Positions 5,342 through 55,414 of a stretch of DNA of 64,000 nucleotides are shown piece by piece. A program made the position numbers and the translations under genes. The notes beneath the pieces were generated by a model. The model worked only from the letters and a program-made list of their open reading frames with translations, was not told the origin of the DNA and searched no databases. Origin of the DNA: Barthelona sp. PCE (lineage: Eukaryota); NCBI GenBank assembly GCA_040285745.1, contig JAUFOR010000003.1, forward strand, positions 868,001-932,000, in the 5' to 3' direction. Position 1 is the first letter of the stretch. Every line of letters starts with the position of its first letter.

Positions 5342-6094
5342 TTAACTCTCATCCTTTGGCTCAGGCTCAGCATCATCAACATTCGACTGCCTCTTCCTCA
5401 TAACATAAACATAAAAATAGGAAGATGGATTAGACGGATCATCTGTGGCGAGGGCCTTGGGGATCGTCTTGGTCTCTGTTGTCCAGTTTAAGCCATGACG
5501 AGAGAAGTGATCCAGTCGGGAATCAGGTGTTCCATAAGAAATGCAAATAAAGACGCCACCGGGCTTCAGGACACGCTGGACCTCCTTGTTCATGAGGTAG
5601 GCATTGTCAAATGACTCACGTCCACATAATAATGCATCCAGAGTAGCTTTATCGACTACAACATCGAAACTCTCGTCATCGAATGTCATGCGGCGGGTAT
5701 CCATCACCTGGAAAGTAAGCTCAGGCTGATCAGCATACTTTTGCTGCATCTGATGAACCACAGTTTCTGAGATATCAATGTTTGTAACGTTTTTGTAGCC
5801 GTCATCATATAGTTGTGTTGCCATACGGGAGTTACCACATCCCACATGCAGAATTTTTGAGCCTGAGGACAAATAAGGTCTCAAAATATCTGCGCAGTTG
5901 ACTAAAGTGCAATACCAGTCAAAATTGGAACTAGAATCCTTCTGATAACGCTAAATGTAAGTAGATGTATAAGAATAATACTTTAGATGTCGTTCATTGC
6001 GAAGAAATTTGAACATAACTCACAAAATGAACGCATCCATACTAACTATAAGACATACTTCCTCCCAATAAGCAGGTTTTCCGTACTCTGGCAT
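5342..6094 (-). CDS. METTL13/EEF1AKMT4-like class I SAM methyltransferase; exons 6094-6059 and 5950-5342
   Basis: Spliced N-terminus MPEYGKPAYWEE|RYQKDSSSNFDWY restores the family YW..RY/FDWY motif; VGCGNS, DKATLDAL, LKPGG. Confidence 0.88.
5951..6058 (-). other. Spliceosomal intron, 108 nt, with internal hairpin
   Basis: GTATGT...TACTTAC-ATTTAG; removal joins conserved coding motifs in frame. Confidence 0.9.
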
Positions 6095-6319
6095 CTAATA
6101 TTCGTGTAAAACAAGAGAAAGAGTTGAAATTCACAATAACACTTTATTCAGTTAGTTAGCCTTCATCGCTTCCTTTAATTGGTGTTAATGTAGTAAATTG
6201 TACTCATTTGCCACATTTTAAAAAGAAAATTCTTTTAGTCTGTAAACATCCAAACATTTTTTCTTTTCCACAGCCGATATTTCATAAAACATCCGATAAC
6301 ATTTACTGGTTATTGTTAT

Positions 6320-14016: not shown

Positions 14017-17000
14017 TTACAAATTCAGGTTTTTGAAACTTTGTTCAAGGATCCCCGAAGTCGGGCTTTGCTCAAGGATAGTCAAATCACGCTCAGATTC
14101 AATGTACTCAATGTTGTAAACATCTCCACTCACAGTAATATTACAACCATACTTGACTTGCCTACAAAAGCCAACCTTCTGCCATGCTTCAAGCACTTTG
14201 GGACGTACAAGTACGATCAGGTGCTTCTTTGCACGGGAAAATGCAACGGTGAGACGGCATAGATCGCGGGCAAACTGGGAACAAATGCTGCGCGTCGTAA
14301 ACAAAACACAGCACGTGTCTTCCTGGCCTTGGAATCCATCAACGGTCTCTGCACCAACTCCGCTCTCGATTAACATGGGGTTTGCCTTCCTAAAAGCATT
14401 CATTTGATCCTTATAGAAGAAAAGACAAGTCACCGACATATGGAGCGCTAAATACTTAACAATTTGCGCTCCTACGGTTAACTCGAGATCGTTTCTCTGT
14501 CCTGTGATTTTCTGAGACGACCTCACGTCGATGAACGACCATGGGTCTTTAAGCGGAAACAGTGAATCCTCCCCGTGGACATCAGACAGGTCTGTGTACC
14601 TGTGACGCCACAAGTCAGCAATTCCTGGGACTGAGCGGGACTGTACCGATAGCTGTACAATTGGAGCGAACGCACTGAGGAAATCAAAGACAGAAAATTC
14701 GTAATTAGAAGTTTGCAGTTTCCTGTTTGAAAATATGGGCGATATCTGCATGTTATCGCCGACACAGACGAGTGACCGTGGTGCGAGGAGAAGGATAGGA
14801 AGAAATTCAGCAACAACAATACGTCCGGCCTCTTCCACAATGATGCCACTGATACCTTCTCCACCACCGATACGCGTGTCCTTCAGAGTCGAAATCTGCG
14901 CAGTCAGGGCCGAACACGTGCAGAAAACAACGTTGGAAAAAAGCAGAAGCGGTCGAGAAATACGGTTAAGGATATGCTGGATGGATTCGATAGAGGAGCG
15001 TGAGAGATCCCTGTTCACTGTCCCGCTGGACAGCAAGTGGACCAAAGCACGCTCCACACGACGCTGGGTGAAACGAGATGGTTCACCTCCACACTCTTTA
15101 ACAAAACCATGTCTGTATCTCTTGGGGAGCTCACGCAGTAACCCGTATATTTTGTCGACATAGTGTTTCAGCTGGCCTGCTACAGTCCAACGTCTCCCAG
15201 TGGCTGAAGTCGACTGGGATCCAAGCCGCAGCATCTGAGGCCTGGCGCAATTTTCATCCTTGCAACAACTGTTATGCTGGCCTAATAAGCGCACAAACCC
15301 CTCAAGGAGGTGATCTACAACGAGATTAGAGTGCGCTGTAACGATGAAGAACCCCGATGGATTAGAGAGCACCATGCTGAGCAAGCAATTGATGGCAGTG
15401 AATGTTTTTCCGGTGCCAGGGGGCCCAAGAATACAGCTGTTGTAGTAAGTGAGTGCGTTGAACATGGCACGGCTTTGCTGCGGAAACGGAATCAAATCCG
15501 TCGAATCGACCCTCTCAAACGTTTTGGGAATAGTGAATGGTTTAATCTTAACAGCAAAGCTTTCAGGATTGTCACTCAGCTCTGCAGAGAATGTGTGCTC
15601 ATCTTCACGAAGCCACCTCACAAAATTCACGCTGTCAAAAGGAAACGGGAACTTTGTGTGTTTAAATATCTTTTGAAAAACAGTATGGTTGTTGAATTCG
15701 GTCGAATAAGTAGGCTTGATATCATTACAATCAACCAAAAAATCAAGGAGGGCCTTAGTGCTGCGGAAAAATGGTTCGCATAAAACGAGACTGTACGATC
15801 CAATCAGCTGTGGCTGCAACATACACACGACCTCGACAGCACCGTTGATGTACGAATGCTTGTTAACCTCCACAAACTCAAAAAATGTAAGCTCTCCATT
15901 CCCACTAGTTCTAAATACCACAGCATGTGTACTGCCCTTATTCTCGGGTTCAACGTCAAGGGCAAGCATAATCTTCCCGCTTGTATATGTTGTGGCCTCA
16001 CATGACAAAACTCTTCGCTTATTCTTCTGTATGTAGTCGAAGGTGCTGTACACCATTTCAGACTTGTACAACAAAAACGAAATGACCCGTAAGGTATCGG
16101 TACACATCGTGGGTAGCATGCTAGGGATTGGAAGCATGTTGTTGAACAACGAAAATACAAAATTAAAATCAGGAAAAGGGCACAGTTCCCCGTCCGCATC
16201 GTACTGCAATGTTTCAGAAATATCACTGAAGCACGGGTGCAGTTCCATACAATCAGCCAAACGTTCACGAACAGCAGTGGCTAAAATAAACATTGAGTAA
16301 TCCAGAGCAAAAACTTCAACATCGTTAAAACCCTTAATAACCCTCTTCAGCTTGATCATCGTATCTATTCTGCCATTGTGAAGAACCAAAAAGAGAAAAA
16401 CAGAGGCTCCTGATGAAAGTTGAATAATGTCCGTCAACATTGAAGTGAAATATCGCATAATACCAAATACAAACATAGAACGGATGTATTTCGATTGAAC
16501 AAGTGCTAGTATATTGTTGACAATACTGAAACCCGTCTGTGGAAGATCAAAAGCATCAAACAGAGCGTTCGATATATCCAACATTGAATTCCGTCCACAT
16601 AGCTGCTCCAGTGCACAGTGGATTGCATCTGTGCTGTCCTTTGCCTGCATCCGACACAGCATACGAACAAACTTAATTGTAACGAAAGCTTCAACCATTC
16701 CAACCTCCATTTCATTCAACGCACGCAGGATTACCGTCACAAGAGGTTCTTTCCGCACCTCTGTGAGAAGAACAGTGGCATCCTTCTCCTGATTGCAACG
16801 CACAGCAAGTGCTGAAGCCGTAAGTAGTACGAGATGTTCAGAAAATACTCTGGTACTCTGGAATAATGGAATAAGAAAGTTGTCGAGTACGTTGAGTGTC
16901 TCAAAACGCTGGTGATTAATCAAAAAATAGTCAATCTGCTGCTTGTGCACTTCACTTTTGGAAAAAGACAATGTAGCAGTTTCAAAATCAATCTCCTTTA

Positions 17001-17169
17001 TAAAAACAACATGGTCGAACGAGTAATCCAATTGCAAGTTGAATTCATGATCTTCATTCACTGGAAAAAACCCCGTGTACAAGTATGCCACCAAATCATT
17101 AAGTTTATCTTCTTTATAACTATTAATGCTGTTTTGTGATGGAAATAAATTGGAAAAGATTTGTTCCAT
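14017..17169 (-). CDS. AQR: Aquarius-like SF1 (Upf1-like) RNA helicase, spliceosomal intron-binding complex
   Basis: GPPGTGKT, AHSN, LRLG, IIVEEAG (EE in motif II as in AQR), GDNMQ, TVDGFQGQE, RLTVAFSRAK; likely ATG 17169. Confidence 0.72.
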   Translation of the reverse strand: MEQIFSNLFPSQNSINSYKEDKLNDLVAYLYTGFFPVNEDHEFNLQLDYSFDHVVFIKEIDFETATLSFSKSEVHKQQIDYFLINHQRFETLNVLDNFLIPLFQSTRVFSEHLVLLTASALAVRCNQEKDATVLLTEVRKEPLVTVILRALNEMEVGMVEAFVTIKFVRMLCRMQAKDSTDAIHCALEQLCGRNSMLDISNALFDAFDLPQTGFSIVNNILALVQSKYIRSMFVFGIMRYFTSMLTDIIQLSSGASVFLFLVLHNGRIDTMIKLKRVIKGFNDVEVFALDYSMFILATAVRERLADCMELHPCFSDISETLQYDADGELCPFPDFNFVFSLFNNMLPIPSMLPTMCTDTLRVISFLLYKSEMVYSTFDYIQKNKRRVLSCEATTYTSGKIMLALDVEPENKGSTHAVVFRTSGNGELTFFEFVEVNKHSYINGAVEVVCMLQPQLIGSYSLVLCEPFFRSTKALLDFLVDCNDIKPTYSTEFNNHTVFQKIFKHTKFPFPFDSVNFVRWLREDEHTFSAELSDNPESFAVKIKPFTIPKTFERVDSTDLIPFPQQSRAMFNALTYYNSCILGPPGTGKTFTAINCLLSMVLSNPSGFFIVTAHSNLVVDHLLEGFVRLLGQHNSCCKDENCARPQMLRLGSQSTSATGRRWTVAGQLKHYVDKIYGLLRELPKRYRHGFVKECGGEPSRFTQRRVERALVHLLSSGTVNRDLSRSSIESIQHILNRISRPLLLFSNVVFCTCSALTAQISTLKDTRIGGGEGISGIIVEEAGRIVVAEFLPILLLAPRSLVCVGDNMQISPIFSNRKLQTSNYEFSVFDFLSAFAPIVQLSVQSRSVPGIADLWRHRYTDLSDVHGEDSLFPLKDPWSFIDVRSSQKITGQRNDLELTVGAQIVKYLALHMSVTCLFFYKDQMNAFRKANPMLIESGVGAETVDGFQGQEDTCCVLFTTRSICSQFARDLCRLTVAFSRAKKHLIVLVRPKVLEAWQKVGFCRQVKYGCNITVSGDVYNIEYIESERDLTILEQSPTSGILEQSFKNLNL

Positions 17170-17229
17170 CAGAAATGAAAAGGTTGAAAAAACGGTTTTC
17201 AATGTATTACCCGTTTCACTGATTTTCAT

Positions 17230-19095
17230 ATGCCCAGACGAATTATTTTTAATGAACATGCTCACAAAGATTATGAAAATTCTGAGTTTTGTGTATCTGA
17301 AGTGAAGAATCATTTTACACTGATCAAAAACCCACAGCCTGCATCATTTATTAATTGCAACCAGTTTATTTTGTTCCAAAAGTCATCTTATCCAATAGAA
17401 TTTGGTGAATTTCAAGGAAAGAAAAAGATACACAGGTGTTGGCAAGATACTACAACTTACAATTCTCTTTTAAATCTCCGCTACAAGCCTGAATGCATCA
17501 TACCACCTCTCAAAAATGGTGACAGATGGCGTCACAACATTTGGTTCATGGAGTTTCCATCATTGTAGATAACCAACAACATAACTTTAACCTTTCCAAC
17601 AGATGAGATTTACTGCCTTTCGAGATCTTCCTTTTTATTCGTGATATTCAGTAAGAATACCATTATTAAGAGAGTTTATGAAAGCAACTACTCGTCATAC
17701 ACTGAGTTTGATCTTACTGAGCTCATTAATCATCCCGTTGACTTCTACTGGACGGATTCCCCTGTTGAATCTTTCATCCCTGGTGGTGTAGCGCTTTCAG
17801 GGGGCATTTTTTTTTTCAACGACGCAAGATTTATTCCTTGTGATGAGGTGCTTTCTTGCTGCGCAAACATAACTGCTGCTATCGTACGTAACAGGGTGTG
17901 TGAGGAGGAGGTTACGTATCTGTACACAGAGTACGATGCGTTGCCTTTCGTAACAGACAAAATCATTCCTTCCCGAGTTGCTTTACTTTTTGCAACAGAA
18001 GGACTCTCCAAGTTTACATTCATGTCGGCAAAGAAATATGCCAATATGATACTAACTGACAATGGAACTACCAATAGTATTGGTGAGATTCCACCAAGCA
18101 TGGACTACATCTGCTGCGAGTTATCTTTTCCTTTTGAATACAGTAGCCGTTTGTACTCGTTTGACAATTTGTCATTCAAGACATTTATTCCTAAATCAAA
18201 GGAAGACGTACTGATGATGCTGCCCAAGTATCAATCCCCTCTTTTTTTCAATGATCATACAATTTTTTTCTCATCAAGAATGACGAAATCATGGCCTACT
18301 TTATTTCTGCTTGACGTAAATGAGATACATGTGTTTCCTAATATTAATTCACAAGACACAATTATCAAGATTGACCCCTGTCAGTGTTTCAGTGCAAGTT
18401 ATCGTTTCGCAATAGTTGGCACCAATAATATCAACCAACAGGTACTTGTTTCTGATAGAAATACTGAAATTACTGATATAGTGTCTGAATCCGATAACTA
18501 TGATAGTGAGAACACGCATCATATAATTAAAAAGCATAATAGATCGTTTTTGTTGAACAACATTGAATATCACACTGCAGACGAGATTATAAACTTCACA
18601 TTCTCAGGAGATTACCTGTTTGTGACACTTTATGATTACACAACCAATGTTTATTATATTTCAAATGGCACACCAGAATTGATCAAGAACATTGATTCGG
18701 AGTTGTCGTTTAATCGTTGGGACCCACATGTAGCATATGATGTAACAACTCGTGAGTTGGTACTCTTTGACAGTGATTTTAATCGTATTTCAAGTTTTAC
18801 TTCTCCATCTCCTGTGGCAAGTAGTACTTTTTCTGGACCTCGTTCTTTTTTTTACAGGAAAGAAGTCTATCATTGTGATTTTGAAAATGGTATATTACAA
18901 TCGGTTCCGCACTCTTCATTTAGAGAATTTTATTCAGATGTTTTTTACCAAACTAATATTAGGAACGAAAAAATGATTATTAAGAAATTTAATGCTACAT
19001 CATTTGATGATGTTGAGATAGAAGAGTTTGATATACTCAAATTTATTCATACTGCCAATATAATTCACTTTCCTGATGTTTGGGATGGTAAGTAA
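17230..19095 (+). CDS. Hypothetical ~620 aa beta-rich protein interrupted by a single in-frame TAG at 17566-17568 (pseudogene, readthrough or atypical intron)
   Basis: ORFs 17230-17568 and 17641-19095 are in the same frame with only one stop between them. Confidence 0.6.
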
Positions 19096-19478
19096 TAAGC
19101 AATGTTGAAAACTTCAATTTCCTTTTGTAAATAATAAAAATAACACTGAATTATGAATAAGAAAAGATAAGTATCGAATGCCTCTGTAACTAAAACAACG
19201 TAAAAAATATACTCGCGTCGAACTAGCAATTAAACATCCAGTTAAATATTGCCAACAAGTTGAACACAGATGTTGCGTGTATAACATAAGTGCCTTCGAA
19301 AGTGGCTCTTGTGGAAATCAGAACAACACCATAAAGGTGAAAATTCTGATAGCAGCAAATTTTCCTCATGCCTCTACCCACTCACCATTTACACCTGTAC
19401 TCTTCAAAATTATACCAAAGATCTAACTTATATACCTAAAACGCTGCAAAAAAGTATCCAAAAAGATTTTATGGTATT

Positions 19479-20291
19479 CTATTTACTATTGTGCTTGATA
19501 ATTGGTCTTCCGATCGCATAATGGGTCGGTTGTGGCCTATACGGTACGTAATTTGTGTATGTGTAATTACTCTTTGCTTTTTCAACAAAAGCTCTGTTTT
19601 TCTTTTGCCAAATGTAATAAAAAGGAATAACTTTCCTGTAATCCATGTGATTTAATGCAGCAAATTCACCTAACTCTGTGTCATTCTCTTCAATAAACTT
19701 TTTAAAAGATTCTATATTCTTTTTCTCATCAAATTCATCGATATATGATTGATGTGAGTTGAGAAGTACTGGGGCATGACCAAGTTTCCGCTTAACATGC
19801 TCTAAATAACCTAGAACATTATCTGAACCAACTGTTTGTGATAACTTAAGCAAACTTTCATAATTAAAACTATTCTCATTGTTTAAGTACATCTTTCTAA
19901 TATCTTTCATCCTCTTTGGACCCTCAATAACATCTAATTGTGGTGGGGTCCTACACTTTTCTGGTTTTCCTGTTCTCAACTCAGGCAAAACACATTGATA
20001 TTCGCCCACACGGCTCTTTTTGTTCTCATAGCCTGCATCCTTTATCTCTTGCTTCTTTTTTTGAACAAACTCAAAGCACATTTCAATTCGAGCCTTCACA
20101 TCAGGTATTTGATCTAATTCACTGTCTTGGAGATCTAAATCGTCTGTTTCTCCACGTTTAACATCTTTGTCAAGTTCAAAAACCTCTTCAGACTCCTCTC
20201 CATTATAAAAAAATTCTTCGTCCCCTTCTTCATCCGTTGACGCACCCTCTATCGCGTCAACGCTCTCGTTTATCCTGCTCCACAAATCCAT
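19479..20291 (-). CDS. ELM2/SANT-type chromatin co-repressor (MIER-like), reduced
   Basis: Acidic N-terminus; SRVGEYQCVLPE (ELM2 start) and KVIPFYYIWQK (SANT end). Confidence 0.6.
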   Translation of the reverse strand: MDLWSRINESVDAIEGASTDEEGDEEFFYNGEESEEVFELDKDVKRGETDDLDLQDSELDQIPDVKARIEMCFEFVQKKKQEIKDAGYENKKSRVGEYQCVLPELRTGKPEKCRTPPQLDVIEGPKRMKDIRKMYLNNENSFNYESLLKLSQTVGSDNVLGYLEHVKRKLGHAPVLLNSHQSYIDEFDEKKNIESFKKFIEENDTELGEFAALNHMDYRKVIPFYYIWQKKNRAFVEKAKSNYTYTNYVPYRPQPTHYAIGRPIIKHNSK

Positions 20292-20344
20292 AAATGTAAA
20301 AAAATTCTCGTTAAGAGTTGAAAAACAAAATCAAACAAATTTAT

Positions 20345-22186: not shown

Positions 22187-22373
22187 AAATATCAGATAAG
22201 GTAAGGTAAAAATCAGTAAACCGCAATTGTGACTTCACAGGGGCTGAGTTCTCTCGGATACATGCATGTTTACTGACAGATATCTAGTTGGATGGCGTGA
22301 ATAAGTTCCTAAGCTCGAGGTCGGGTAATTGAGTTCCCACCCCATAAAAAATAGTAAAAAAGAGAAATCCGGA

Positions 22374-22775
22374 ATGTACGATAAAGGGCGTAATTCGGAC
22401 AGCACATTCATGAGTCACAGATTCACTCTGCCATGAGTTCCGTCAACCACATGCTTCCATCATTCAACAATAACTTCTCATTGAAAAATGCTTACGGTTC
22501 TCATTTTTAACCACATTGAATCTATTAAAATGTCATGAATCGTAAAATAAGTAAAGTTATTAAAAAAAAAAAAATTCTTTTTTGAAGAGCCCTTATTCAT
22601 TGCAGAATACCACCGAGACAACAGACAATCGTTTGAGAATTCAACAGAGTGGATAAGATTCAGCGTGCGCTTGCAAGGCTCAGAAACAATAGTTAAAAAT
22701 TGCTAGTTGTGCTTCATAAAGTACAATTTACTGGAGGATGCCAAAAATGAGTTTATTACGACTGTTAAAGCTTGA
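22374..22775 (+). pseudogene. Possible decayed Ras-superfamily small GTPase fragment
   Basis: One frame reads YHRDNRQSFENSTEWIR...KNC*LCFIKYNLLED, resembling YD.T.R.SFE.v..W and the G4 region; several stops; no intact P-loop. Confidence 0.3.
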
Positions 22776-23491
22776 AAGTTTAACTAAAAAGTCTATAAAA
22801 ACAACAGATATAGAGAAAAATAAATATTCATTTTAATCCCTGTATTGGCTATAATAATCAATTCTATGATGAGGTTAATGGTAAAGGATCCCTTACAGAT
22901 GTATGGAAAATGAATACAAAATAGAAACATTGTTTTTTCAATGTATCTTAACAAAATTAATAATCAGCCCCTGTTTGAAAGAATTAAACACTATGAAATA
23001 TATAATTAAGTACTATATCAAAGCTCTTTACCATACAATAATGCTAAAAAAGGATATCACACAAAAAATTCTCACTTAGTATCTGAGGTAAATGTGTGTT
23101 GTATATAACATTAATCCATATATTTATGCCCCCTAAACATATTATAAAAACGTAAAACTGATAATACTGTAAATAGTAAAAAATTGCTCTTCGCAAAATA
23201 ACCATAGCTTCTTAAAACCATCTGTACAATGTTAATACTCCAAATACAATACATTTATCATAGAAAAAAGTAAATTATAAAGAGTGAACAGATGAAAAAA
23301 AATATTAATATGTTAAATTTAAAATCTCTTTTTTTTAAATTATTAATAGACTATATCACACCATAAAAACATCGCTTATGTGTTTAAAATATCATTACAT
23401 CCATAAAGAAAAAAGACATAATTGAGAATTTCGTGAATATTAATTTAAAGGCTTAAATTTTACATTCCTTAATTTCTGCTTTAGTCAAAGC

Positions 23492-23563
23492 GTCCCAATG
23501 GTGTAGTGGTATCTCGTTCCCTTAGGGTGGGAAAGGTCCTGGGTTCAATTCCCAGTTGGGACC
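23492..23563 (+). tRNA. tRNA-Pro (AGG)
   Basis: Acceptor GTCCCAA/TTGGGAC, anticodon arm TTCCC-TTAGGGT-GGGAA, T arm CTGGG-TTCAATT-CCCAG, C discriminator, downstream T-run. Confidence 0.92.
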
Positions 23564-23652
23564 AACTAACAATTTTTGAACTTGCAATTTTAAAGAACAT
23601 TTTAGACAAAGACAATGAACATTCACGAGAACATTTCTGTAATTCGGTATCA

Positions 23653-25359: not shown

Positions 25360-27642
25360 TTAGAAGATCTGACTGAAGCCCTCGTTGTCGAGCTCACCTT
25401 CATATTCAAGGTACTTGATAAATTCATCGTACTCATTCAGAAGAATTGCGTTGAACTTAGCATGTACATTCTTCCATAGATCAGCAGTCTCAGGAATCCC
25501 TTCAGGGATTCTGCAAAGAATGGGGCCAACTAGAACAGACATGGAGTCCAGACTCATGGAGTTCTTCTCCTTGTGCAAGTCAACCTGTTTGAGCAAAGAA
25601 AAATAGCAGCTGACAATGGTTCTTGAGAGCTCATTCTCGACCAGACCTTCATATTCATGAGTACCAGGTTCATAATTGAGTAAGGCCTCGATGTTGACAA
25701 AACCGTTTGGTTCTGAACGGAGGAGATGGTGGATCATATTAGACACGTAGATGGGATCAATTTCTTCGTTCAAAGGAAGAGAGAGACACTCCAACTGGGG
25801 AATCATCGAGTCGCGGTGCGTATTGACGATCGATGACCTGAAGATCATTGATTTCTCCATTCCGTTACGGTACATCCAGCCGCACAGCTTATCGAACAAG
25901 ACAGGAACATCGTTGGGATTGAGAGGCCAGTGCTCGGCCGGAACAAAATAGTGCGGAACTTGAGCTAGCGGGAGTTCGAAGGTTTCTTCAACGTGGAATT
26001 TGCCTGCAATGGCATCATTTGCAGGAAGATACTCAAGAGGTAGACCCAGGCCGTCTGGGAGGACAGAGAAATCTGAGGTGTTTGATATCTGTGTGTACTT
26101 CTCCCAGAACTTGCGAGAAACAAAAGGACGTGAGACGGTGAGCACGAAACGGGTCCAGAGGGAAGGGTTGACGCAGTACAGTTTCTTGATCATCTTCCTC
26201 GTCCTTCTGTTTAGCTTGGAGTAAAAGGATCTAAATTCTCCAAAGGATAAGCTCGTGGATTGACCAGCTGTTGAATTAAAGAAGAGAACGACGTAGGGGT
26301 GCTTGCTGAGGACAAAAAACTGACGGATAAGAAGATTGAAGAAATCTGCAGCAGAGCATCGAACTCGGGGACCAAGAATAACCAAAACGGGTAATCCTTC
26401 TTCAGTGTACCCGCCCATATAACATGCCAGTAGGTTCTGAGCTGGTTTAACGTCAGAACGGAGAGAGTTCATGAGGGCAGCCTCGAACTCTTGCTCGGTT
26501 TCATCGTTCATATACAGCTCGTCCTCAAAACGGCGTTCGCTTAACGGAGAAACGACCTCGTCAAGGGTGAACTCGCGTTGACGAGTCATAACAGGAGTTC
26601 CAATGCCGGCCGCATCAGGAAGAAGGGGAGTGGTGATAGCTTCCTCAATAAGCTCATTATCAATGGTTTCCTCGATATCTTCAACTGGCTCCTCAATAAC
26701 AATAGGCTCAGCAACTGGCTCTGGTTCAGGTTCTTCGACAACCTCCTCAACAACTGGCTCGGGTTCAGGTTCTTCGACAACCTCCTCAACAACTGGCTCT
26801 GGTTCAGGTTCTTCGACAACCTCCTCAACAACTGGCTCGGGTTCAGGTTCTTCGACAACCTCCTCAGCAACTGGCTCGGGTTCAGGTTCTTCGACAACCT
26901 CCTCAACAACTGGCTCGGGTTCAGGTTCTTCGACAACCTCCTCAGCAACTGGCTCTGGTTCAGGTTCTTCAACAACCTCCTCAACAACTGGCTCGGGTTC
27001 AGGTTCTTCAACAACCTCCTCAACAACTGGCTCGGGTTCAGGTTCTTCGACAACCTCCTCAGCAACTGGCTCTGGTTCAGGTTCTTCAACAACCTCCTCA
27101 ACAACTGGCTCGGGTTCAGGTTCTTCGACAACCTCCTCAACAACTGGCTCGGGTTCAGGTTCTTCGACAACCTCCTCAACAACTGGCTCGGGTTCAGGTT
27201 CTTCGACAACCTCCTCAACAACTGGCTCGGGTTCAGGTTCTTCAACAACCTCCTCAACAACTTCTGGGGCAGACTCTTCAGTTTGCTCCTCAGACTCAGA
27301 TATAGGGACGGTTTCAACCTCAGATTGCTCTTGAGTTTCAGTGACATTCACTTCTTCTTTTTGAGGTGCTTCTTCAACATTTTGCTGAATTTCGACCTCA
27401 ACAGCTTCAACCTCAGCCTTAGCGGAAGCTTCAGCTTCAGAGTTAACCTCAACAGGTGTTTCAACAGTTTCCTCACCAACTACAGGTTCTTCAACGGCTA
27501 CATCAGGAGTATTGTTCTGATTTTGACCATTCATGTTATTGTTACGGTTGTTGCGCTTATTTTTCTTATTCTTGTTTCTGTTTCTGTTATTTTTACGACC
27601 TAAGTATTAGAAATTTCCACGATGTGATGTAAAAATACCCAT
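25360..27642 (-). CDS. BCH/CRAL-TRIO + RhoGAP protein with acidic tandem repeat; exons 27642-27639 and 27599-25360
   Basis: Spliced start MGRKNNRN...; [21 protein letters not shown] (BCH); [28 protein letters not shown] (RhoGAP). Confidence 0.8.
26708..27262. repeat. Coding minisatellite, 39-nt unit x14 encoding (V/A)[12 protein letters not shown]
   Basis: Near-identical tandem copies of ctcaacaactggctcgggttcaggttcttcgacaacctc. Confidence 0.95.
27600..27638 (-). other. Spliceosomal intron, 39 nt
   Basis: ATGG|GTATTT...TTCTAAT-ACTTAG|GT CGT; joins ATG to the otherwise start-less upstream extension of the RhoGAP frame. Confidence 0.8.
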
Positions 27643-29530: not shown

Positions 29531-29542
29531 TACTTCCTTTTT
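29531..29542 (+). promoter_or_regulatory. TCT/TOP-like pyrimidine tract upstream of RPS27
   Basis: TACTTCCTTTTT, identical 12-mer upstream of RPS15A. Confidence 0.45.
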
Positions 29543-29567: not shown

Positions 29568-29850
29568 ATGAACACTGATCTTCTTCATCCTGATGCCGTT
29601 AGCGAGGCTAACACTCACAAGCTCAAGCGTTTGGTGCCCACTCCTAACTCCGTCTTCTTGGATGCCAAGTGTGCTTCTTGTGGTACTATGTATGTTCTTT
29701 TACATTTTAGGGGCTCTAACCTTTAGTAACTGCGTCTTCTCACACGCTACTACCACCATTCACTGCCAACAATGTCAAGCTCTCATCTGTACTCCTACTG
29801 GTGGCCGTTCTGAGTTTGCTAAGAACGTCGCTTGCCGTCAGCGTAACTAG
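29568..29850 (+). CDS. RPS27: 40S ribosomal protein S27 (eS27); exons 29568-29689 and 29727-29850
   Basis: MNTDLLHP...HKLKRLVPTPNSVFLDAKCASC...VFSHATT..C..C...CTPTGG after splicing. Confidence 0.95.
29690..29726 (+). other. Spliceosomal intron, 37 nt
   Basis: GTATGT...CTCTAAC-CTTTAG; required to keep the eS27 frame. Confidence 0.93.
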
Positions 29851-39661: not shown

Positions 39662-39981
39662 GTATGGTTGATTTTCCTCATAGTTCATCTGTTTTTACAT
39701 GCGCATTAGACTCAAATATATGTACAATAAGCTTAAAACGTTTTGTTTCGTAGAGGTTTCATTAAAACTATGTTTCTAACCGAGATAGCAGTATTTAATG
39801 CAAGCATAGCACACAGTCAAGTGGTTAGTGTCACACACGCGTGGCATTTTTGCACCATATGCAAAGCATGTAGATTTTGTCATTTACTTGCGATTCTTAC
39901 AGTTTTTGCATTGTTACACAGTATATAATGAGCTGCATCTAAACAGAAATGGGGGTACACGTTGTGTTTACTAACATTAAG
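39662..39981 (+). other. Putative 5'-UTR intron of RPL21, 320 nt, highly structured
   Basis: AAG|GTATGG after a pyrimidine tract; TACTAAC-ATTAAG 7 nt before the ATG; long-range complementarity between its ends. Confidence 0.65.
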
Positions 39982-39988: not shown

Positions 39989-40468
39989 ATGGCTAAAAAT
40001 CACGGTAAGAGATCCAACACTCGCAAGAAGTTCAAGAAGGATTTTCGTAAGAGCGGTATGCCTACTCTGACGAAGTATCTCACCAACTACAAGATTGGTC
40101 AGTTCGTCGATATCGTTGTCGATCCCGCCATTCACAAGGGTATGCCCTACAAGTACTACTGTGGCAGAACCGGACGTATTTGGGATATCACTCCTCGTGC
40201 CGTTGGTGTCATTCTCTCCAAGCGCGTTGGTGGTCGTATCATGAACAAGAAGCTTCATGTTCGTGTCGAGCACATTCGCCCCAGTCGTTGCCGTGCCGCT
40301 TTCGTCGAGCAGTGCAAGGTTTCCGATGCTCTTAAGGCTGAGGCCAAGACCGAAGGTCGTATCATCTCCACCAAGCGTTTACCTGCTCAGCCTAAGAAGG
40401 CTCAGGTTGTCAAGTTCGATGGTGTTGTCGATGTCGTCGCCCCTGTTGAGTACGTTGAGTTGTACTAA
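39989..40468 (+). CDS. RPL21: 60S ribosomal protein L21 (eL21)
   Basis: MAKNHGKRSNTR...YKIGQFVDI...HKGMPYKYYCGRTGRI...KKLHVRVEHIRPSRC. Confidence 0.96.
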   Translation: MAKNHGKRSNTRKKFKKDFRKSGMPTLTKYLTNYKIGQFVDIVVDPAIHKGMPYKYYCGRTGRIWDITPRAVGVILSKRVGGRIMNKKLHVRVEHIRPSRCRAAFVEQCKVSDALKAEAKTEGRIISTKRLPAQPKKAQVVKFDGVVDVVAPVEYVELY

Positions 40469-40633: not shown

Positions 40634-42135
40634 ATGCCCATTAAGGTATAGTTTTTAATTGGGTGACATGTTCTAACATTTAGGCACCTCATCGTTTAAG
40701 CACAAGCGGATTTGGCAGGGATCGCACGCAAAATGGTAACGTTAGCTATTCTGTTCCTTATAGCCCTTCAGTTGTACGCAGAAAAGAATCCACAGTCACA
40801 AAGATCGCCCGTGAGGTGCTTGATAAGCGTGAAGCTTTAACCTCTATTCAAAATGCAGTCGCGCCCAATGGACAAATGTCATCTACCCAATTCAGAAGTG
40901 CTTTGAGGACATCAGGCGTCGACCTCACCACATTAGCTATTGATAGAGCTGTGAATTATGCCTCACAAAATGGTGTTGTTGATTTGCCTGCTTTCATGCA
41001 CAAACTTGAGGAAGCAGATATTTGTACCGTCCCTGAGCGCATTCGCAGGGAGGCTCAAGTTACATCACTACCTGATGAGAATACCGTGTCTTCTTTTAAT
41101 GTCAAACATGACCCCAAATCACGTGTTCTTGAAAGATTGCGTGACAAGGTTTACTTTAACAACTCAAAGCTCAGTGAAGCGTTCATGGATATGGATGATG
41201 ATGGAGATCACTACATCTCGCGAGTGGAGATGAAGCAGCACCTAAATCAATTACTTGCTCCTGCACCGGAGGAGGACGCAGCAGTGGACAGCATCATAAA
41301 CGATCTTTGCACCGAGAACAAGGAAATAGTTAAGTTCAACGATTTTGCAAAGGTTATCGAACCTCCGTATCTCAGCAGCCCCGTCATTGGTTACAACCCT
41401 AGGGAACCAGTTGAAACCCGCCCCGTCGCACCCCGTGCACAGTATAAGCGCGATGACTTCGGAAGAATCAATGTAATGAGGAACAGACATGTACACCGCT
41501 CACTGAGTTCAGAGCTCCTGGATTTAAATAATCCTACGAGCATCGCACACTCCTTCGAGGCACTTGACAGCGGTAAAGGCAGTGTTTCAGAAGGCGAATT
41601 CAAGCAGGCACTGAGCGCTCTCGGTGTTCGCAACCTTTCCGGTCACATGGCTATTGCTCGTGATGTTGCCCAGCTTGATAGTGGGTACTTTGACTACAAG
41701 CGCTATCTGAATCACATCGGAGCGGCAACAGGTATTGAGAGCGTCATACCAGCCAGCTCTCGTGTCAGTCGCCCTCCACGTGCTCTTCAGGATCACGGCC
41801 CTCTGCTGCAGCCCAAGGATCCCTCCCCGATCAAGAATCCCTCCAGGATCTTAGAGTCGCAGGTGGATGATATTATTCAGCAAAAGATTCCACCGGTCCC
41901 TATTCCTGCACCACAGACCGCATATGCATCTCCTCGCCCCGAGTGGATGAGTTGGTCGAACCCTGACGATTACACACACCCACAACAGCCTAAATCGACA
42001 AAGAAGCGACGAGTGTCTTCTGCCTATGACTCATCCAGCATTTCAAGCGTATTGACCACAGAGCCCGCTGAAATACCGCAATATACACCGCGTAGACGAT
42101 CGTTTAGACCAAAAGACACACTTACTCTTTATTAG
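40634..42135 (+). CDS. EF-hand protein; exons 40634-40645 and 40684-42135
   Basis: DMDDDGDHYISRVE and LDSGKGSVSEGEF EF-hand-like loops; spliced start MPIK|APHRL in frame. Confidence 0.75.
40646..40683 (+). other. Spliceosomal intron, 38 nt
   Basis: GTATAG...TTCTAAC-ATTTAG; supplies ATG to the downstream ORF in frame. Confidence 0.85.
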
Positions 42136-44872
42136 TGTAGGTAAACGGCGCCCCCTCCAGCATGCACAGTAGTTGGGTACCAAGGAACTCTCCAGGGTAC
42201 TCCCGAATGAATGTCTCAGTAAACAGCCTGCCAATTTTACGGAAGTATGATACTGCAGGAGGGTATTCATAACAAATGATCAGGATGGAAGTGATTGCTT
42301 CAATCTTGACTGATTCGTCCTCCCATCGCGCCAGAAGGAGCAGCCTATCAATCACGCTCGACTCCAGCATGAGCTCCTTTGCCTCAGGATTTCCAATGGC
42401 AATTGCGGAGATGGCGGAAATGAGTGGCAGAACGGGGCCGAACGAGTTCATGATCTCGAGGATCGACGGTGGGGCGAGGGCCACCTCATCCATGCGTTCG
42501 TCAGCGTTGGAGACAAAATCGACGAAAAAATAAATTATCATTTCCAAACAACACATTGTGCTGTTCTGCACTTCTCTATCGATCATGCTCTCCATCACAA
42601 TCGTCGTAATGATGGAAGATATGAACGTTATGTGTGTGATTGATAGTGCGAATACGTGCAATCGGTGCAATACATCGGTGTTCAGTAAGGGGTCAATATA
42701 CAACGTCATCAGTACGATGATGCGCAGGACGCTCAGTGCCACGCTCTGCAGCTGATGCTCTGTGACAGCCTCGGCCCTATGCAGCTGTACGGATACCATG
42801 TCTTCTCCAAAAATGTTAGCTACTGATTCAAGGAATCCAAACAGCGTTTGCTGGTTTGCCTCAATGAACTGCTTCTCGGCAACTGTGGGGTCCTCACACA
42901 TCGTGTGTATACAATTTGCAACTGTTTCAAGCGTTATTGAAGCTCGGTTGAGAACAGCCGCTCTTTCCACATCCTGGGTCTTAAAAGTGGCGCTAATGAT
43001 CTCTTCTGCCCCCTCTGGGGCTGTAACGTGCATCGCGTCGTTGTCCAGCGTCGATGATGCAACATTAAGCACAGAAGACACAAACTCCAACCCCAAAGCT
43101 GAATAGAACGTGCTGTTAAGCAGGCAGTACTGGCTCAGCGCAAGTCGTACCACATCGAGCACAGGCGCTGCATTGGCTTCCTCACTCGCCTCAATGTACT
43201 CAAAATATTCCTTACATGAGAGAAGACTCGGAAATGCATCCAACGAAAAATGACCTGCCGCATAAGGAAGTGTATCAACGAGGAGGGAGAGTGCAGGGCT
43301 TATGTATTGCCTCAGCACCGCCATTTGCTTTACGAGCGATCTGTGAGGTATGCTGATGTCGATCTTCGGAACGTAGCTCGCAATCAGGGTGACACCGTTG
43401 CTCAAGACGAAAAGATCACGGAAGTCGGTGTCGATGGAAACGTATGTGTGAAGCAGCGCAAACAGTTTGGCGTATATCTCACTTAGTACCGTAATATTGC
43501 CATGCACACGCCCTATGAGATTACTTGGGAATACCATGAGGAAGAGGCTAATGACATTAACGTTTTTGGCAGTGGAGAGAACCGTGTCGCTGTTGCGAAT
43601 CATGAGCAGGAAGACGCGCATGAGCATGTAAAACGGGAGTATATACTGAGTGTCGAATTCGACGAAAAAATGTGTTTTTGCCGTTTTAAGACACATACGG
43701 ATAGCTCCCACCAGCGCATTGATTCCATTATTACTTTCAAAACAGTGTACATATTGTCTAGATTTTTTGAATGAAAGTATTCGATTGCATACCGTAACAA
43801 AGATTGATGGCTGGGTGGTGCACAGGTCTGTGATGTCGCGGAAGACTGCGTTTCTCACAGTTGTTGAAAAGCGACTACTCCTGTTAATATTTGCTCTGGC
43901 CCCTATTGTTGTGTTTTTGAGCAGCCTGTGTTGATTGAGGGTCATAGATCGCACAGGGAGCGGAGTGTGGGTTGATTTCTTCTTCATCAAAGCCCTTCCT
44001 GAGAGGACCTTGGGCTGAAGGAAGTTACTGTTTGCTATTCCAGATTTTGTCTTCTTTTTACGACTATCTGCTGTGCTAGGGCGCTGGGACTTCCGCCGGA
44101 ACACCTCCTCACGCTTCTGTTCAGCTCTTAATTTTTCTCTTTGCTTGGTTATATGTTTCCTCATGCTACGGAAAGCAGAGCTTGTTTGCTCCAAAGCAAG
44201 GGATGCGTTTTTGCGCACAGGAAGCGTCACCGTATGTGCCATCTTCAGATCCTGCCTTTCTCTTAAATTCGGGTTGAGCAGAACAGGTATGAGTGGCTTG
44301 TTTAATTCCTTCTGTGGTGTGACAGGTGCCGTCTGCGGCCTTCCAGTTGTGCGATCTGTGAACCCGTGATGTCTTGTTTGCAGCTTCGGTTGTGGATAAA
44401 AACCGCGGCTCATCCGCAACATGCCGTTAAACGTATCGTCGTCGAGCCTCGTCCTGAAACTGTCCTCCTCAACATCGCGCGGCACGGTAGCGCTGAGCCC
44501 TGAAAATCTATTGGGGGGAGCACGAGGTGTTCTGGGAGTCTCTATGTATGTTGTTATTATTTCCGGAATTTCGTTCTGCAGATCATCTTCCTGGAGATCA
44601 TCATCGGATTCATGCTCGACTGGTTGTGCAAAAGCTACTGTTTCATCAAAAATTGGTGCTTTTGTAGGATATTTCATTTTTCTATTCTCAATTACTGGTG
44701 GAGATGTTGGTCTAGGTGAAAAAAATGTGAGATTTTCTGAATTTGACACATTTTCTTGCCGTGATTGAACAGCATCCTCAATATTCAATCGTTTGAAAGA
44801 TGTGTGTTTCTTAGGCCGATGATTTAGTCGAACCAAGAATTTATGCTGTGAAAATCCGTTGCTTGGGAACAT
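42122..44872 (-). CDS. Protein with basic disordered N-half and ARM-like helical C-half
   Basis: Long ORF; NGINALV, NGVTLI, NPEAKELMLESSVIDRLLLL resemble ARM repeats; likely ATG 44872. Confidence 0.6.
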   Translation of the reverse strand: MFPSNGFSQHKFLVRLNHRPKKHTSFKRLNIEDAVQSRQENVSNSENLTFFSPRPTSPPVIENRKMKYPTKAPIFDETVAFAQPVEHESDDDLQEDDLQNEIPEIITTYIETPRTPRAPPNRFSGLSATVPRDVEEDSFRTRLDDDTFNGMLRMSRGFYPQPKLQTRHHGFTDRTTGRPQTAPVTPQKELNKPLIPVLLNPNLRERQDLKMAHTVTLPVRKNASLALEQTSSAFRSMRKHITKQREKLRAEQKREEVFRRKSQRPSTADSRKKKTKSGIANSNFLQPKVLSGRALMKKKSTHTPLPVRSMTLNQHRLLKNTTIGARANINRSSRFSTTVRNAVFRDITDLCTTQPSIFVTVCNRILSFKKSRQYVHCFESNNGINALVGAIRMCLKTAKTHFFVEFDTQYILPFYMLMRVFLLMIRNSDTVLSTAKNVNVISLFLMVFPSNLIGRVHGNITVLSEIYAKLFALLHTYVSIDTDFRDLFVLSNGVTLIASYVPKIDISIPHRSLVKQMAVLRQYISPALSLLVDTLPYAAGHFSLDAFPSLLSCKEYFEYIEASEEANAAPVLDVVRLALSQYCLLNSTFYSALGLEFVSSVLNVASSTLDNDAMHVTAPEGAEEIISATFKTQDVERAAVLNRASITLETVANCIHTMCEDPTVAEKQFIEANQQTLFGFLESVANIFGEDMVSVQLHRAEAVTEHQLQSVALSVLRIIVLMTLYIDPLLNTDVLHRLHVFALSITHITFISSIITTIVMESMIDREVQNSTMCCLEMIIYFFVDFVSNADERMDEVALAPPSILEIMNSFGPVLPLISAISAIAIGNPEAKELMLESSVIDRLLLLARWEDESVKIEAITSILIICYEYPPAVSYFRKIGRLFTETFIREYPGEFLGTQLLCMLEGAPFTYTNKE

Positions 44873-45798: not shown

Positions 45799-46206
45799 TC
45801 ACCGGAGCACTGAACTGGAAAAATGTGTGATTTCTTCAGAATTAAAATATGTAGCTGTTTGTGGTGGTAAATGATCTAAACAATATGTTGTATCAAATCT
45901 TGAGGTGTAATCAACTGATCTGCAGCACGAGCAATACAAATTAGCACACGTTTGACAGTATTGAAGGCAATTTGAACAGAATTTCTTTCCGCAGTAAGTA
46001 CAAGGTTGGAGATTCTTTAAGGACATACATTCATAACACCTGGGTACAAGTGTATTGTTTTTAGAAGGATTCAGACTTAAATCTACATGTTTTGCATTCT
46101 CCAGCATGTGTGCAAATACTGATACTTTTTGTCTGGTCGGCGGGGGTGTATTGTCCCAATTGGCGGCCCTCACTGTTCCGAAAGGGTTCCTACGCTTTAA
46201 AGGCAT
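45799..46206 (-). CDS. Siva-like zinc-finger protein
   Basis: MPLKRRNPF N-terminus and CxxC array ending VDY...YCLDH match the Siva layout. Confidence 0.6.
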   Translation of the reverse strand: MPLKRRNPFGTVRAANWDNTPPPTRQKVSVFAHMLENAKHVDLSLNPSKNNTLVPRCYECMSLKNLQPCTYCGKKFCSNCLQYCQTCANLYCSCCRSVDYTSRFDTTYCLDHLPPQTATYFNSEEITHFSSSVLR

Positions 46207-46408
46207 AAAAAAAAAATTTTGAAAATAATGTAATGGGACTATGCAATGAATTCCAAAAGGTGGAGATACACAAGAAACGCTAATGCGTTTTACTAGCCGT
46301 TAAAAATGGTTGGAAAAAGACAAACAACAATTTTTTTGAAGGTACACAAAACATTCTCAAATGAACCTACGTTGCAGTTTATTAACATATATACACACGC
46401 CGATGTAC

Positions 46409-52395: not shown

Positions 52396-55300
52396 TTACA
52401 TATGCTCCTTCTTAAATCTTCTATACAGCAATTGTAACACACGAACAACAACTTCTCCATCACCCTCAAGAATACTGTAAATTGTGGAATCATCGCACAA
52501 AGAATCAGGTAACTTGAGAGCGTTGAGGGCAGTTTCAATATTATACATGCAATGTGCACGGCACTCGGGTGACTCCACATAGCTGAGATGCAAGGTTGGG
52601 GTCAATCGGTTAGCAAGGTCACACAAAAGTGTTCCATTTGCCCAATGCCTACCAGACTCGACAGCATAAGGTGTTACGCGCATACCGAGCCCTCTGAGCC
52701 ACTCTGCCATTTCATGGTTCGGTGCGTTACCGACGTGTGTCGAGTTAGGAGTCTTTGGTATCACCATTGAAGCTCCAAGCACTGCAGGCATCCTTGGAGT
52801 GGATGGAACAATCGTCGTGGTTGTCTTTGACAGCCATCCATTCTTCGACGACTTTGATGTGCGAATTGAATCAACCAGGGTTTGTAGTCTGTTCTCGATT
52901 GATGATACAACGTCTTTCTTCTTCTCAATATTCGCTACGTTCATCTTGGGCGCAACGAGACGTGTCGTTGCGGAGAAGGCCTGACGGATTCGTGCAATGG
53001 TTCTGACGATTAGTACTAGATCTCCCTGCAGCATTTTGTCATAATCACCAATGGCGATTATCTTTTCAATTTGCAACTTCTCAACAAGTTGGTTGATGTG
53101 GCGCACCTCCATCTTAGACAGGCTATTATATATGGGTACAATCATTCCGACAGAGATATCACCCCAATCGATGAAAAGAGAGTGGACATTGAGTGTTTCG
53201 CTGATGGAGTTCATCAGCTCCTCGATACTTTCCAGCCTGACACACGTTGAGCCTGGATATCCTTTGATCCACCGCTTGTGGGGCTCAACGTTCCTCACAA
53301 GACAACGCAGTAGTTCCCAAATACAACCACCACTTATGAGCTCGTCAACGCTCAGAAGCGATGTTGGTATCTGCAAATCGGACTGGCGGATCGCCTTGAA
53401 GCACCTGTTGTAGCGTGTCTTAACATCTTTAATAGATCGCAAGACCTTTAAATCTTTAACTTGTACTCGGTGCAGTCGGAGCAGATCAAGAACCACCTTT
53501 CCATTGCGAAGCGGATCCATGAGGATGGGAAGTTCGGCCATATGTCGTTCAGAAAGCAGAGACATACCGCATTTGATGAGCGTGAGTCTGATGTCCTTTC
53601 GTTCGTTTTCATCACACATATCGACAACAAGAGGCTTAGTGAGCACGCTTAAATAGATATTGTCGCTTGCCTCAACGGTTGTGCTCGCAAATTCAGTCTT
53701 AAGACTCTCCATCTCCTCGGTCTTCCGCCTCCTTCTTCGTTTAGCACCACCAAACGTCTTCTCGAAGTGGCGCTGGATATCATACAGCAACCCAAACACA
53801 GTGTCTGTGTCGCCATCGACCATACCATCGCTGTTGAAGACGTGCTCACTTCTAAACTTTTTGTCCTTCTTGAGAATCTCAAACCCCTTACGTATATTGA
53901 TCATGCGCTGTCCACGGGTCTTTGGGGCTTTGTACGTGCCCTTGATATCCACCAGACGGTAGGCGTTCATTAAAAACATGTTCAGTAGAAGCCCTTGTGA
54001 GAAGTCGTGGGCAAAGTCTTCTCTGTAAGGCATATGGTCGAGTTGAAGTGCGCGTCCCTCGCTGCGGACAATGAACCAGCGTACGAGGTCTTGCTCCTCG
54101 TTCGTGAGCGAAGTGAGGTTATCAGGACGCTTATCCTCAACAACATGCATCCTTCGTGCTGGACCGGAACCAAGAGATATGGTGCTCTTTGTTTTTTTAA
54201 GCGCGTCTTTCTCAAACACCGATTGGATGTTGTCGATCACGCTCCTCTTGTGTTGTGTTTCTTTCATGGTTGCGGTTAAACCTTCTTCATCGAATCGAAT
54301 TCTTGCCTTTTCCCTTGTCTTTGTCTTCTTGTCGGCTCTGTTCAGCTTCTCGGGTCTGTTCAGCTTCTCAGCCGGTGTCCTGTTTAGGTTAGAAACGGTC
54401 TTGTTGAACTGCTTTAGATATCCAAACTGTTCCTTCTGCTTTCTCAGCTTCGTGATGTGGTATTCGTCAACAATTTGTTGTGTGATCTCAGCGTCATCAG
54501 TCGCAAGCACGTCGCGAGAGGAAACATTAAACGCACTGGTCACAGGATATTCGTGGGGAAGAGGAGGGTGTTTAGGTCTTTGCCATCTTCGGTTGCCACG
54601 CTTCATTTTCCCACGAAGTTCTGCTGCAACAATAATGGGACTCTTGTATGCATATCCTCCACCAACGCGTTTTCGTGGACTTTCACCTGTCAGAGCAATA
54701 TCACGACGTGTATGCTTGAACTGACTTTGTAAAAGAGAAAGTCCGGCCTTCTGGGTTGGTGTGAGTCTCTGGGTTTTGCGTATACTGCGCTTTTTCTTCT
54801 CTTTCTTGATTCGTCTGAATCCTTGTGGCTGTTTAGTACTTTCCAGGTCTTCCAATGTTAGCATTGATTTTCTTAATGGAGAAGGGTCAGTAATATGCCT
54901 TGCCATGCGGGGATTTTCGTCCATAGCAATAATAGGTGCCATACCCTCCTTGAAAAAATACTTCAAAAATGCGAAAAAGTAGAAAACTACACTAAATTCA
55001 GGTTTCATAAAAAGCTCAATTACGTCTTCGTTGAGGAAAATGCTTGGGAACTCTTGACTGTACTCAGTTGATGATAATAACTGAAGAACAACAAACCAAT
55101 GTTCATAAGCTGTCGCAAAAGATTCAGGATCTGGTATGTTTAATAGCTGACATGTGATAAAATATGCTGCTTTGCCTGAGGCAAGGTCTGCAATGTCAGA
55201 AGCGAGTAAACAGGCAGCAGAATTAAACGAATTTATCCAATACAGCATCTTTTGAACGGCAGTTCCGCTTGGGAGCGGCAAATCGGAGAACGTGAGTTCA

Positions 55301-55414
55301 TTATAGTTTCCAAATTCCAGAATGTTAGTTTCATAAAAGGCGCGTTGTCTTAAAACATACTTTTAATGGTGTTAAATGTGTTGGTGATTGCGGTAAACTG
55401 GCGTAGTCGGTCAT
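52396..55414 (-). CDS. Multi calponin-homology (CH)-like domain protein; proposed exons 55414-55361 and 55317-52396
   Basis: DFSQGLLL...NIRKGFEIL, LRNGKVVLDLL, WANGTLLCDLANRL...NIETALNAL CH-like motifs; upstream ATG exon joined via atypical intron. Confidence 0.7.
55318..55360 (-). other. Putative non-canonical GT-TG intron, 43 nt
   Basis: GTATGT...AACTAAC-ATTCTG|GAA; same branch spacing as the other introns and restores frame. Confidence 0.6.

Follow-up and report, generated by a model that had tools for sequence, protein, structure and literature searches.

Introduction

In Giardia and Trichomonas vaginalis, the branch word and the 3′ splice site of cis-introns are fused into a single element, with a 5′ splice site that reads [G/C]TATGT and a 3′ end that reads CT[A/G]ACACACAG (the motifs of a 2023 Giardia study, which also includes candidate introns without a branch motif) or ACTAACACACAG. 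Consensus sequences have been given as VTATGTT and VCTRACACRCAG for Giardia and as GTAAGTY and RCTAACAARYTAG for Spironucleus vortens, and the same source describes the branch-to-3′ distance as invariant in Giardia, reports that splicing is abolished in Trichomonas when the branch motif is moved by 2 or 7 nucleotides (nt), and notes that the longer cis-introns of Giardia, Spironucleus and Trichomonas have the potential to base-pair (Hudson et al., 2019; PMC6679479). Counted from the consensus strings, the branch adenosine lies at −8 in Giardia and Trichomonas and at −9 in S. vortens. Here we describe five introns, designated A to E, in a 64,000-nt stretch of the genome of Barthelona sp. PCE (GenBank assembly GCA_040285745.1, contig JAUFOR010000003.1, positions 868,001 to 932,000 of the forward strand; hereafter the window, with coordinates counted from its first letter), which probably follow the Giardia/Trichomonas plan.

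Strong branch words and fixed branch positions have evolved repeatedly in intron-poor lineages, including intron-poor yeasts, a red alga, a microsporidian, Giardia and Trichomonas (Irimia and Roy, 2008; PMC2483917). Intron totals of 3, 8 and 65 per genome have been listed, of which 8 is the figure for Giardia and 65 that for Trichomonas, and 124,912 introns have been reported for the free-living fornicate Kipferlia (PMC5874029). Barthelona sp. PCE, a strain that was named Microbarthelona vorax in 2026 (PMC13087550), has been placed in the BaSk clade, sister to Fornicata, and its genome of 10.2 Mb (8 contigs, 40.3% G+C content (GC), 5064 predicted proteins) is described as the smallest known for a free-living eukaryote (PMC11316075). 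In the literature, no description of barthelonid or Skoliomonas spliceosomal introns was found, and the genome paper, its supplements aside, mentions introns in its methods only (PMC11316075).

Results

Five introns share a fused branch/3′ word at one spacing

Introns A to E are likely to be genuine Barthelona spliceosomal introns on the Giardia/Trichomonas plan, in which a GTAT 5′ splice site and the absence of a polypyrimidine tract are combined with a fused branch/3′ word that sets the branch adenosine at −8. In all five, the 3′ end conforms to CT[AT]A[CT]-N4-AG, with the pentamer ending at −7 and its branch-type A at −8. The pentamer is CTAAC in three of the five (60%), CTAAT in one and CTTAC in one, and the six bases that close the intron read ATTTAG in A and E, ACTTAG in B, CTTTAG in C and ATTAAG in D (M-Y-T-W-A-G); the consensus is a YTCTAAC branch word fused to a six-base, ATTTAG-like 3′ word. 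GTAT opens each intron, extended to GTATGT in two and to GTATTT, GTATAT and GTATAG in one each. Pyrimidines make up 50–65% of the 20 nt that precede the branch word, and only 6 nt separate that word from the exon, so there is no polypyrimidine tract. The introns measure 108, 39, 37, 61 and 38 nt (A to E) and have a GC of 0.28–0.36, as compared with ~0.43 for the window. All five reside at the 5′ ends of genes, one in a 5′ untranslated region (UTR) and the others starting 4, 12, 36 and 122 nt downstream of the A of the ATG.

An original prediction, made by a model from the letters of the window, had drawn attention to these sites, and its observation is partly confirmed and its interpretation partly supported. 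The six 13-base 3′ ends that it quoted are all present, at 5951, 27600, 29726, 39981, 40683 and 55318, and it was right about the GTAT 5′ sites, the missing pyrimidine tract and the proximity to gene 5′ ends in the five introns that are supported here. A length range of 37–43 nt, which it gave for all introns, accommodates three of the five, the 108- and 61-nt introns falling outside. It had also proposed that the spacing is conserved and the sequence relaxed; the branch pentamer does vary, but the introns all close with a conserved, ATTTAG-like hexamer.

Exon junctions of the individual introns

The exon junctions of introns A, B and E match public proteins exactly, and that of intron C is supported by seamless homology to eS27. 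Intron A (5951..6058, minus strand; 108 nt, phase 0) interrupts a class-I SAM methyltransferase gene, with GTATGT at its 5′ end (6058) and TACTTAC followed by ATTTAG at its 3′ end; exon 1 is 6059–6094 (12 codons) and exon 2 is 5342–5950. The public protein P0121 (PCE1_001355, 214 residues) consists of the 12 residues encoded by 6059–6094 followed by the 202-residue open reading frame (ORF), homologues from other organisms (P0122, P0123, P0124 and P0126) align through the junction without a gap, and a solved human relative, 2pxx, needs ~13 N-terminal residues beyond those that exon 2 supplies. A 31-nt version of this intron, implied by the original prediction and beginning with GTATTA at 5981, leaves no in-frame start; the 108-nt version is preferred because it reproduces P0121.

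Intron B (27600..27638, minus strand; 39 nt, phase 1) lies in the gene of a CRAL-TRIO/RhoGAP protein, immediately after ATGG (27639–27642) and before an exon 2 that spans 25360–27599. Its ends are GTATTT and TTCTAAT followed by ACTTAG. The public protein P0266 (747 residues) is made up of 2 residues and the 745 residues encoded by 25360–27597, and the plain ORF that starts from an internal ATG of this gene is absent from the public protein set. Intron E (40646..40683, plus strand; 38 nt, phase 0), which runs from GTATAG to TTCTAAC followed by ATTTAG, comes after the first four codons (40634–40645) of an EF-hand protein gene; correspondingly, the N terminus of the public protein P0247 (PCE1_001752) consists of the four residues of 40634–40645 and then the ORF that starts at 40684.

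Intron C (29690..29726, plus strand; 37 nt, phase 2, codon 41) is situated in the gene of ribosomal protein eS27 (RPS27), between exon 1 (29568–29689) and exon 2 (29727–29850), and has GTATGT at its 5′ end and CTCTAAC followed by CTTTAG at its 3′ end. Residues 4–39 of the solved yeast eS27 align to exon 1 and residues 44–80 to exon 2, with just the split codon between them, and exon 2 matches positions 18–50 of the Pfam family S27e. The putative intron D (39921..39981, plus strand; 61 nt) lies in the 5′UTR of the gene of ribosomal protein eL21 (RPL21), where it extends from GTATAT at 39921 to TACTAAC followed by ATTAAG and ends 7 nt before the eL21 ATG (coding sequence (CDS) 39989–40468). A 27-nt version of intron D, probably the one meant in the original prediction, was rejected, its 5′ end being GTACAC and not GTAT.

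A hairpin in the longest intron and a possible role for the spacing

Intron A folds at −24.3 kcal/mol (z −3.26), and 1 of 200 shuffled sequences folds equally well. Its hairpin takes in nt 1–92, with nt 1–5 paired with nt 88–92, so that the two ends of the intron are brought together, and the last 16 nt, which contain the branch and 3′ words, are left unpaired. The stem (5967–6058, minus strand) includes a perfect 8-bp inverted repeat, CGTTCATT/AATGAACG.

In the mechanism that we favor, U2 would pair with the CTAAC-like word, and after the first catalytic step only the AG that follows the branch A at a constant distance of 7 nt would be able to reach the catalytic center. Given such a fixed distance, the choice of the 3′ site would need neither a pyrimidine tract nor U2AF-like scanning, and recognition of the tract could have been lost; conceivably, the rule would apply genome-wide. 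On this model, U2AF would be expected to be lost or strongly diverged, and the branch-binding region of U2 to be complementary to YTCTAAC. As a second constraint, the 5′ site and the branch would have to lie a short path apart, a demand that the short introns (37–39 nt) would satisfy as they stand and the 108-nt intron A through the folding of nt 1–92 into its hairpin.

Observations that weigh against a common plan

Several observations weigh against the reading of these elements as genuine introns of a single plan, the first of which is the abundance of the motifs. Within the window, CTWAYNNNNAG has 26 matches against 27.05 expected, and GTATNN{15,45}CTWAYNNNNAG has 5 matches against 2.49 expected, a number that is reached in 9 of 100 shuffles; one of these 5 begins at a GTAT that lies inside the 108-nt intron A. 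The motif count alone is not significant, and the case is therefore carried by placement and by the protein matches. Among seven strict matches, four lie on the sense strand, at most 150 nt from a start codon (binomial P ~0.001), and a fifth lies at 158 nt. In addition, the spacer profile of non-coding sequence peaks at N4, with 6 matches (one of them antisense within intron A) as compared with 0–3 for every other spacer from 0 to 15.

It could be argued from the chance-level counts that the introns are mostly products of chance and of gene models, with GT...AG pairs picked by a predictor that extends ORFs and branch words read into them afterward. Two of the seven strict matches do fall inside plain ORFs, and the public models were produced by an automatic GeneMark-ET/AUGUSTUS/PASA pipeline (PMC11316075). 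That same pipeline, however, used RNA-seq mapping (PMC11316075). Moreover, intron A restores a 12-residue N terminus that is conserved in four homologues of other organisms, intron C restores a seamless eS27, and a CTWAY pentamer in one exact register in five of five introns has a chance of ~(1/256)^5. An origin in chance and artefact is thus considered very improbable.

Two further sites in the window depart from the plan, and both bear on the claims that the geometry is that of all introns and that the branch A lies at −8 throughout, which are borne out in the five supported introns and fail at these two sites. The first is an annotated second intron of the EF-hand gene (42049..42095, plus strand; 47 nt, GTATTG...CGCGTAG). 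No other pair of donor and acceptor yields the C terminus of P0247, which differs from that of the plain ORF. This 47-nt intron has no YTDAY at −8 or near its 3′ end, its GC is 0.51 as compared with 0.28–0.36 for the five introns, and it shows no structure (z 0.55). If it is not removed, the EF-hand ORF (end 42135) overlaps the convergent gene 42122–44872 by 14 nt (42122–42135). The annotated intron is either a counter-example or a gene-model artefact, and an artefact of the predictor is suspected because the exon-like GC and the removal of the 14-nt overlap would fit the behavior of a gene predictor.

The second departure, site F (55318..55360, minus strand; 43 nt, GTATGT...AACTAAC followed by ATTCTG), had been counted as a sixth intron. 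Its 3′ end is CTG, with no AG until 50 nt further on, at 55268 (another follows at 55249), and it is located outside any CDS, in a 256-nt gap (55249–55504) between two divergent genes. The public protein set has the CDS downstream of it (52396–55248) as a plain ORF, and the region from the site to the ATG has no significant fold (z 0.67). Site F is at best a 5′UTR element and is treated as unsupported.

The sample itself is narrow, comprising five introns from one window of one strain, with the branch A assigned from sequence words. Intron D would be a 5′UTR intron and is put forward as putative on the strength of its motifs; because the public set contains the eL21 CDS as a plain ORF, protein data have no bearing on it. 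Differently shaped introns could also have escaped notice. An exact look-up of 30 first-ATG ORFs found 22 in the public protein set unchanged, and the plain leucyl-tRNA synthetase (LeuRS) ORF matches that set as well; of the 8 that are absent, 2 correspond to the genes that contain introns B and E and 1 is a small ORF that is perhaps no gene. Introns of another form could be concealed in the other 5 (beta-amylase, a helicase, the gene at 18022, a Siva-like gene and a kinesin-like gene). The idea of a short effective length, finally, rests on one intron, since intron D shows no significant hairpin (z 0.37).

It is also conceivable that the introns are real and that −8 is merely a preference, as would be expected of an intron-poor genome with a strong branch consensus in which, as in several yeasts, the first AG is selected. 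In all five introns, no other AG intervenes between the branch-type A and the AG used, so that a yeast-like first-AG rule fits the five cases equally well and a ruler is not needed. Such a rule would also be compatible with the annotated intron that lacks a branch motif, with the good branch word at 55318 that has no AG for 50 nt, and with the S. vortens Rps15 5′UTR intron candidate, whose 3′ site is displaced by 15 nt (PMC6679479). With five introns, one annotated exception and one site without an AG, the ruler-based spliceosome therefore stays a suggestion as to mechanism. Pure first-AG scanning, on the other hand, does not predict identical spacing in five of five introns together with conservation of the last six bases, nor is the N4 peak of the spacer profile in its favor, and the odd 47-nt intron is open to the explanation in terms of predictor behavior given above. 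Overall, a mere preference for −8 seems unlikely, and the fixed plan remains the favored reading.

Comparison with described introns

The metamonad character that had been ascribed to these introns is borne out by the placement of the host in the BaSk clade and by a spacing equal to that of the fused motif of Giardia and Trichomonas. As in those organisms, a CTAAC-like branch word abuts a six-base 3′ word with the A at −8 (five of five), the 5′ site is of the GTATGT type (GTAT in five of five, the full GTATGT in two), the polypyrimidine tract is missing, the host is a metamonad, and the introns are few and biased toward 5′ ends and ribosomal protein genes. Base-pairing in a long intron may be a further point in common, displayed by intron A and not, at a significant level, by intron D. 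In contrast, the 3′ word of Barthelona is ATTTAG-like where that of Giardia and Trichomonas is ACACAG/ACRCAG, although the length is the same; its branch pentamer tolerates CTAAT and CTTAC; positions 5–6 of its 5′ site vary; and the host is free-living. The density of introns in the window, with CDS introns in 4 of 34 recognizable genes, is also far higher than the totals of 8 and 65 introns would give.

Spironucleus vortens and S. salmonicida resemble Barthelona in a fused branch/3′ motif that ends in TAG, in extended conserved ends, and in introns within ribosomal protein genes that include a 5′UTR intron. They differ in having the A at −9, with a spacer one base longer, in a GTAAGT 5′ site, and in a pyrimidine-rich AAC[T/C]3-4R word before the branch, a word that was not seen in the Barthelona introns.

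U12-type introns carry [AG]TATCCTT at the 5′ end and TCCTTAAC as the branch word. TATCC is missing from the 5′ ends of all five Barthelona introns, and none of their branch words matches TCCTTAAC. What the Barthelona introns do share with the U12 type is the absence of a polypyrimidine tract and a short, constrained branch-to-3′ distance, a likeness that is discussed by Irimia and Roy (2008).

The intron-poor set of Irimia and Roy (2008) likewise combines a WCTRAYN-type branch consensus and a narrow range of branch-to-3′ distances with strong 5′ sites and few introns. It is defined by a single branch hexamer that at least ~66% of introns carry and by branch points of which more than 80% cluster to within a few bases of one position; in Barthelona, the branch position is the same in five of five introns and CTAAC occurs in three (60%), in a sample of five introns only. 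The hemiascomycete yeasts, Cyanidioschyzon and Encephalitozoon of that set are unrelated to Barthelona, and in most yeasts the branch lies further from the AG. Barthelona would belong with the set by pattern, not by descent.

This relationship raises the question of whether the fused architecture arose independently in barthelonids during intron loss and was not inherited from a common metamonad ancestor. Convergence among intron-poor lineages is what Irimia and Roy (2008; PMC2483917) describe, the 124,912 introns of Kipferlia point to intron-rich ancestors between the intron-poor metamonads (PMC5874029), and the ATTTAG-like 3′ word differs from ACACAG. Against this, the −8 spacing and the GTATGT-type 5′ site are the same as in Giardia and Trichomonas, with S. 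vortens at −9 (PMC6679479), and there may be shared ancestry of a spliceosome that was already prone to the −8 geometry. We regard an independent origin and its converse as evenly balanced. Irrespective of origin, the Barthelona introns are a known, fused architecture in a newly added lineage, in which the 3′ word, the somewhat looser branch word and the much higher intron density differ from the known cases.

Weaker candidates and other features of the window

Two additional intron candidates have an A at −8. Candidate G (2794..2832, plus strand; 39 nt, GTATTT...TTTTCAT followed by CTGAAG, with the A in TTCAT) would join an 11-nt first exon (2783–2793) in frame to the beta-amylase ORF. The first-ATG ORF of this gene (2855–4234) is the one absent from the public protein set; the Atlas record starts at the ATG at 2927, and no available protein record takes in the candidate. 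The ORF has a 24-residue hydrophobic N-terminal extension (2855–2926, plus strand) that is signal-peptide-like, and the Atlas record begins after it; the enzyme could thus be either secreted or cytosolic. Candidate H, which is weak (46293..46345, minus strand; 53 nt, GTACCT...TTTTTAAC followed by GGCTAG), lies upstream of the Siva-like gene and would join in frame with an upstream 43-nt ORF piece; the plain ORF absent from the public set is 45799–46206. Five possible 5′ ends were tried for it, and the one used departs from GTAT. A Giardia-like end, ACTAAC followed by AACACAG (A at −9), occurs at 29190 on the minus strand with GTATAT 65 nt upstream; there is no gene after it, and it is treated as chance.

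At 17188–19095 (plus strand), two open stretches in the same frame (17188–17565 and 17569–19095) are parted by a single TAG (17566–17568). The second stretch has 151 codons before its first ATG, at 18022, and the ORF from that ATG is the one absent from the public set. GT...AG pairs that would remove the TAG were tried by eye; none keeps the frame and none has a branch word at −8. The TAG could represent stop read-through, an assembly error, a pseudogene or an odd intron.

The window is ~86% coding, with genes on both strands. Pfam matches include LeuRS, eL21, eS27, uS8, kinesins, UFM1 ligase, Mpp10 and Snf7, as well as deoxynucleoside kinase and beta-amylase. A microsporidian, a yeast, a red or green alga, an apicomplexan and Blastocystis were considered as the source and dropped, and an Atlas search with an orphan protein was uninformative as to taxonomy. 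In a homology search, the LeuRS had no relative above 47% identity, and in a FastTree phylogeny of this protein and its 119 best matches it adjoins a EukProt transcript, two Skoliomonas proteins and Anaeramoeba; with long branches, the placement would be supportive at most. A scan of the window with Rfam, under gathering and E-value thresholds, returned two transfer RNAs (tRNAs) and no small nuclear RNA. These two, tRNA-Pro(AGG) at 23492–23563 and tRNA-Trp(CCA) at 23653–23724 (both plus strand), are in tandem, 89 nt apart, with no intron reported in either. A Pfam search of 146 small ORFs in intergenic gaps revealed no hidden split genes, the only matches being to the known Siva-like and Snf7 ORFs.

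Two gene-free gaps, 28813–29567 (~0.75 kb) and 22187–23491 (~1.3 kb), are unusually long among otherwise tiny spacers and gave no Pfam or Rfam matches. The former contains the Giardia-like end at 29190 (minus strand) and also GTAAGT...TTTTGTAG at 29144–29177 (plus strand). A block of low GC at 16000–24000 (0.35–0.36 vs ~0.43) contains three genes without a Pfam family (18022–19095, 19479–20291 and 20345–22186).

Discussion

Four CDS introns per 34 genes, scaled roughly to 5064 genes, would correspond to ~600 introns genome-wide. A broader proposal can be built on this figure, namely that the smallest free-living eukaryotic genome has several hundred introns, essentially all on one plan (GTAT, A at −8, no tract, and a path that is short or shortened by a hairpin). 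We offer it tentatively and consider it somewhat less probable than its opposite.

Introns with a fused branch/3′ site have so far been studied in parasites with a handful to a few dozen introns, sets so small that a true distance rule could not be told apart from chance or common ancestry. With a free-living relative that shares this spacing, differs in the 3′ word and has perhaps ten times as many introns, the rule would become testable statistically from existing RNA-seq; for the Barthelona strain, poly-A RNA-seq has been generated, of which 99.3% of reads map (PMC11316075). Barthelona would also let one ask which parts of the spliceosome (U2AF, SF1 and the branch-binding region of U2) went with the tract, and it could help to decide whether the geometry is ancestral to the Fornicata/BaSk line or re-evolves whenever introns become rare. 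For annotation, questionable introns in the public gene models, such as that at 42049–42095, would be flagged by filtering on the motif (GTAT ... CTWAY-N4-AG) and on low GC, and 5′UTR introns that have been missed would possibly be found.

If the plan does hold across the genome, Barthelona would provide the first large natural set of introns with a fused branch/3′ site. The architecture would then be tied to genome streamlining and not to parasitism, and it would predate the split of barthelonids, fornicates and possibly parabasalids.

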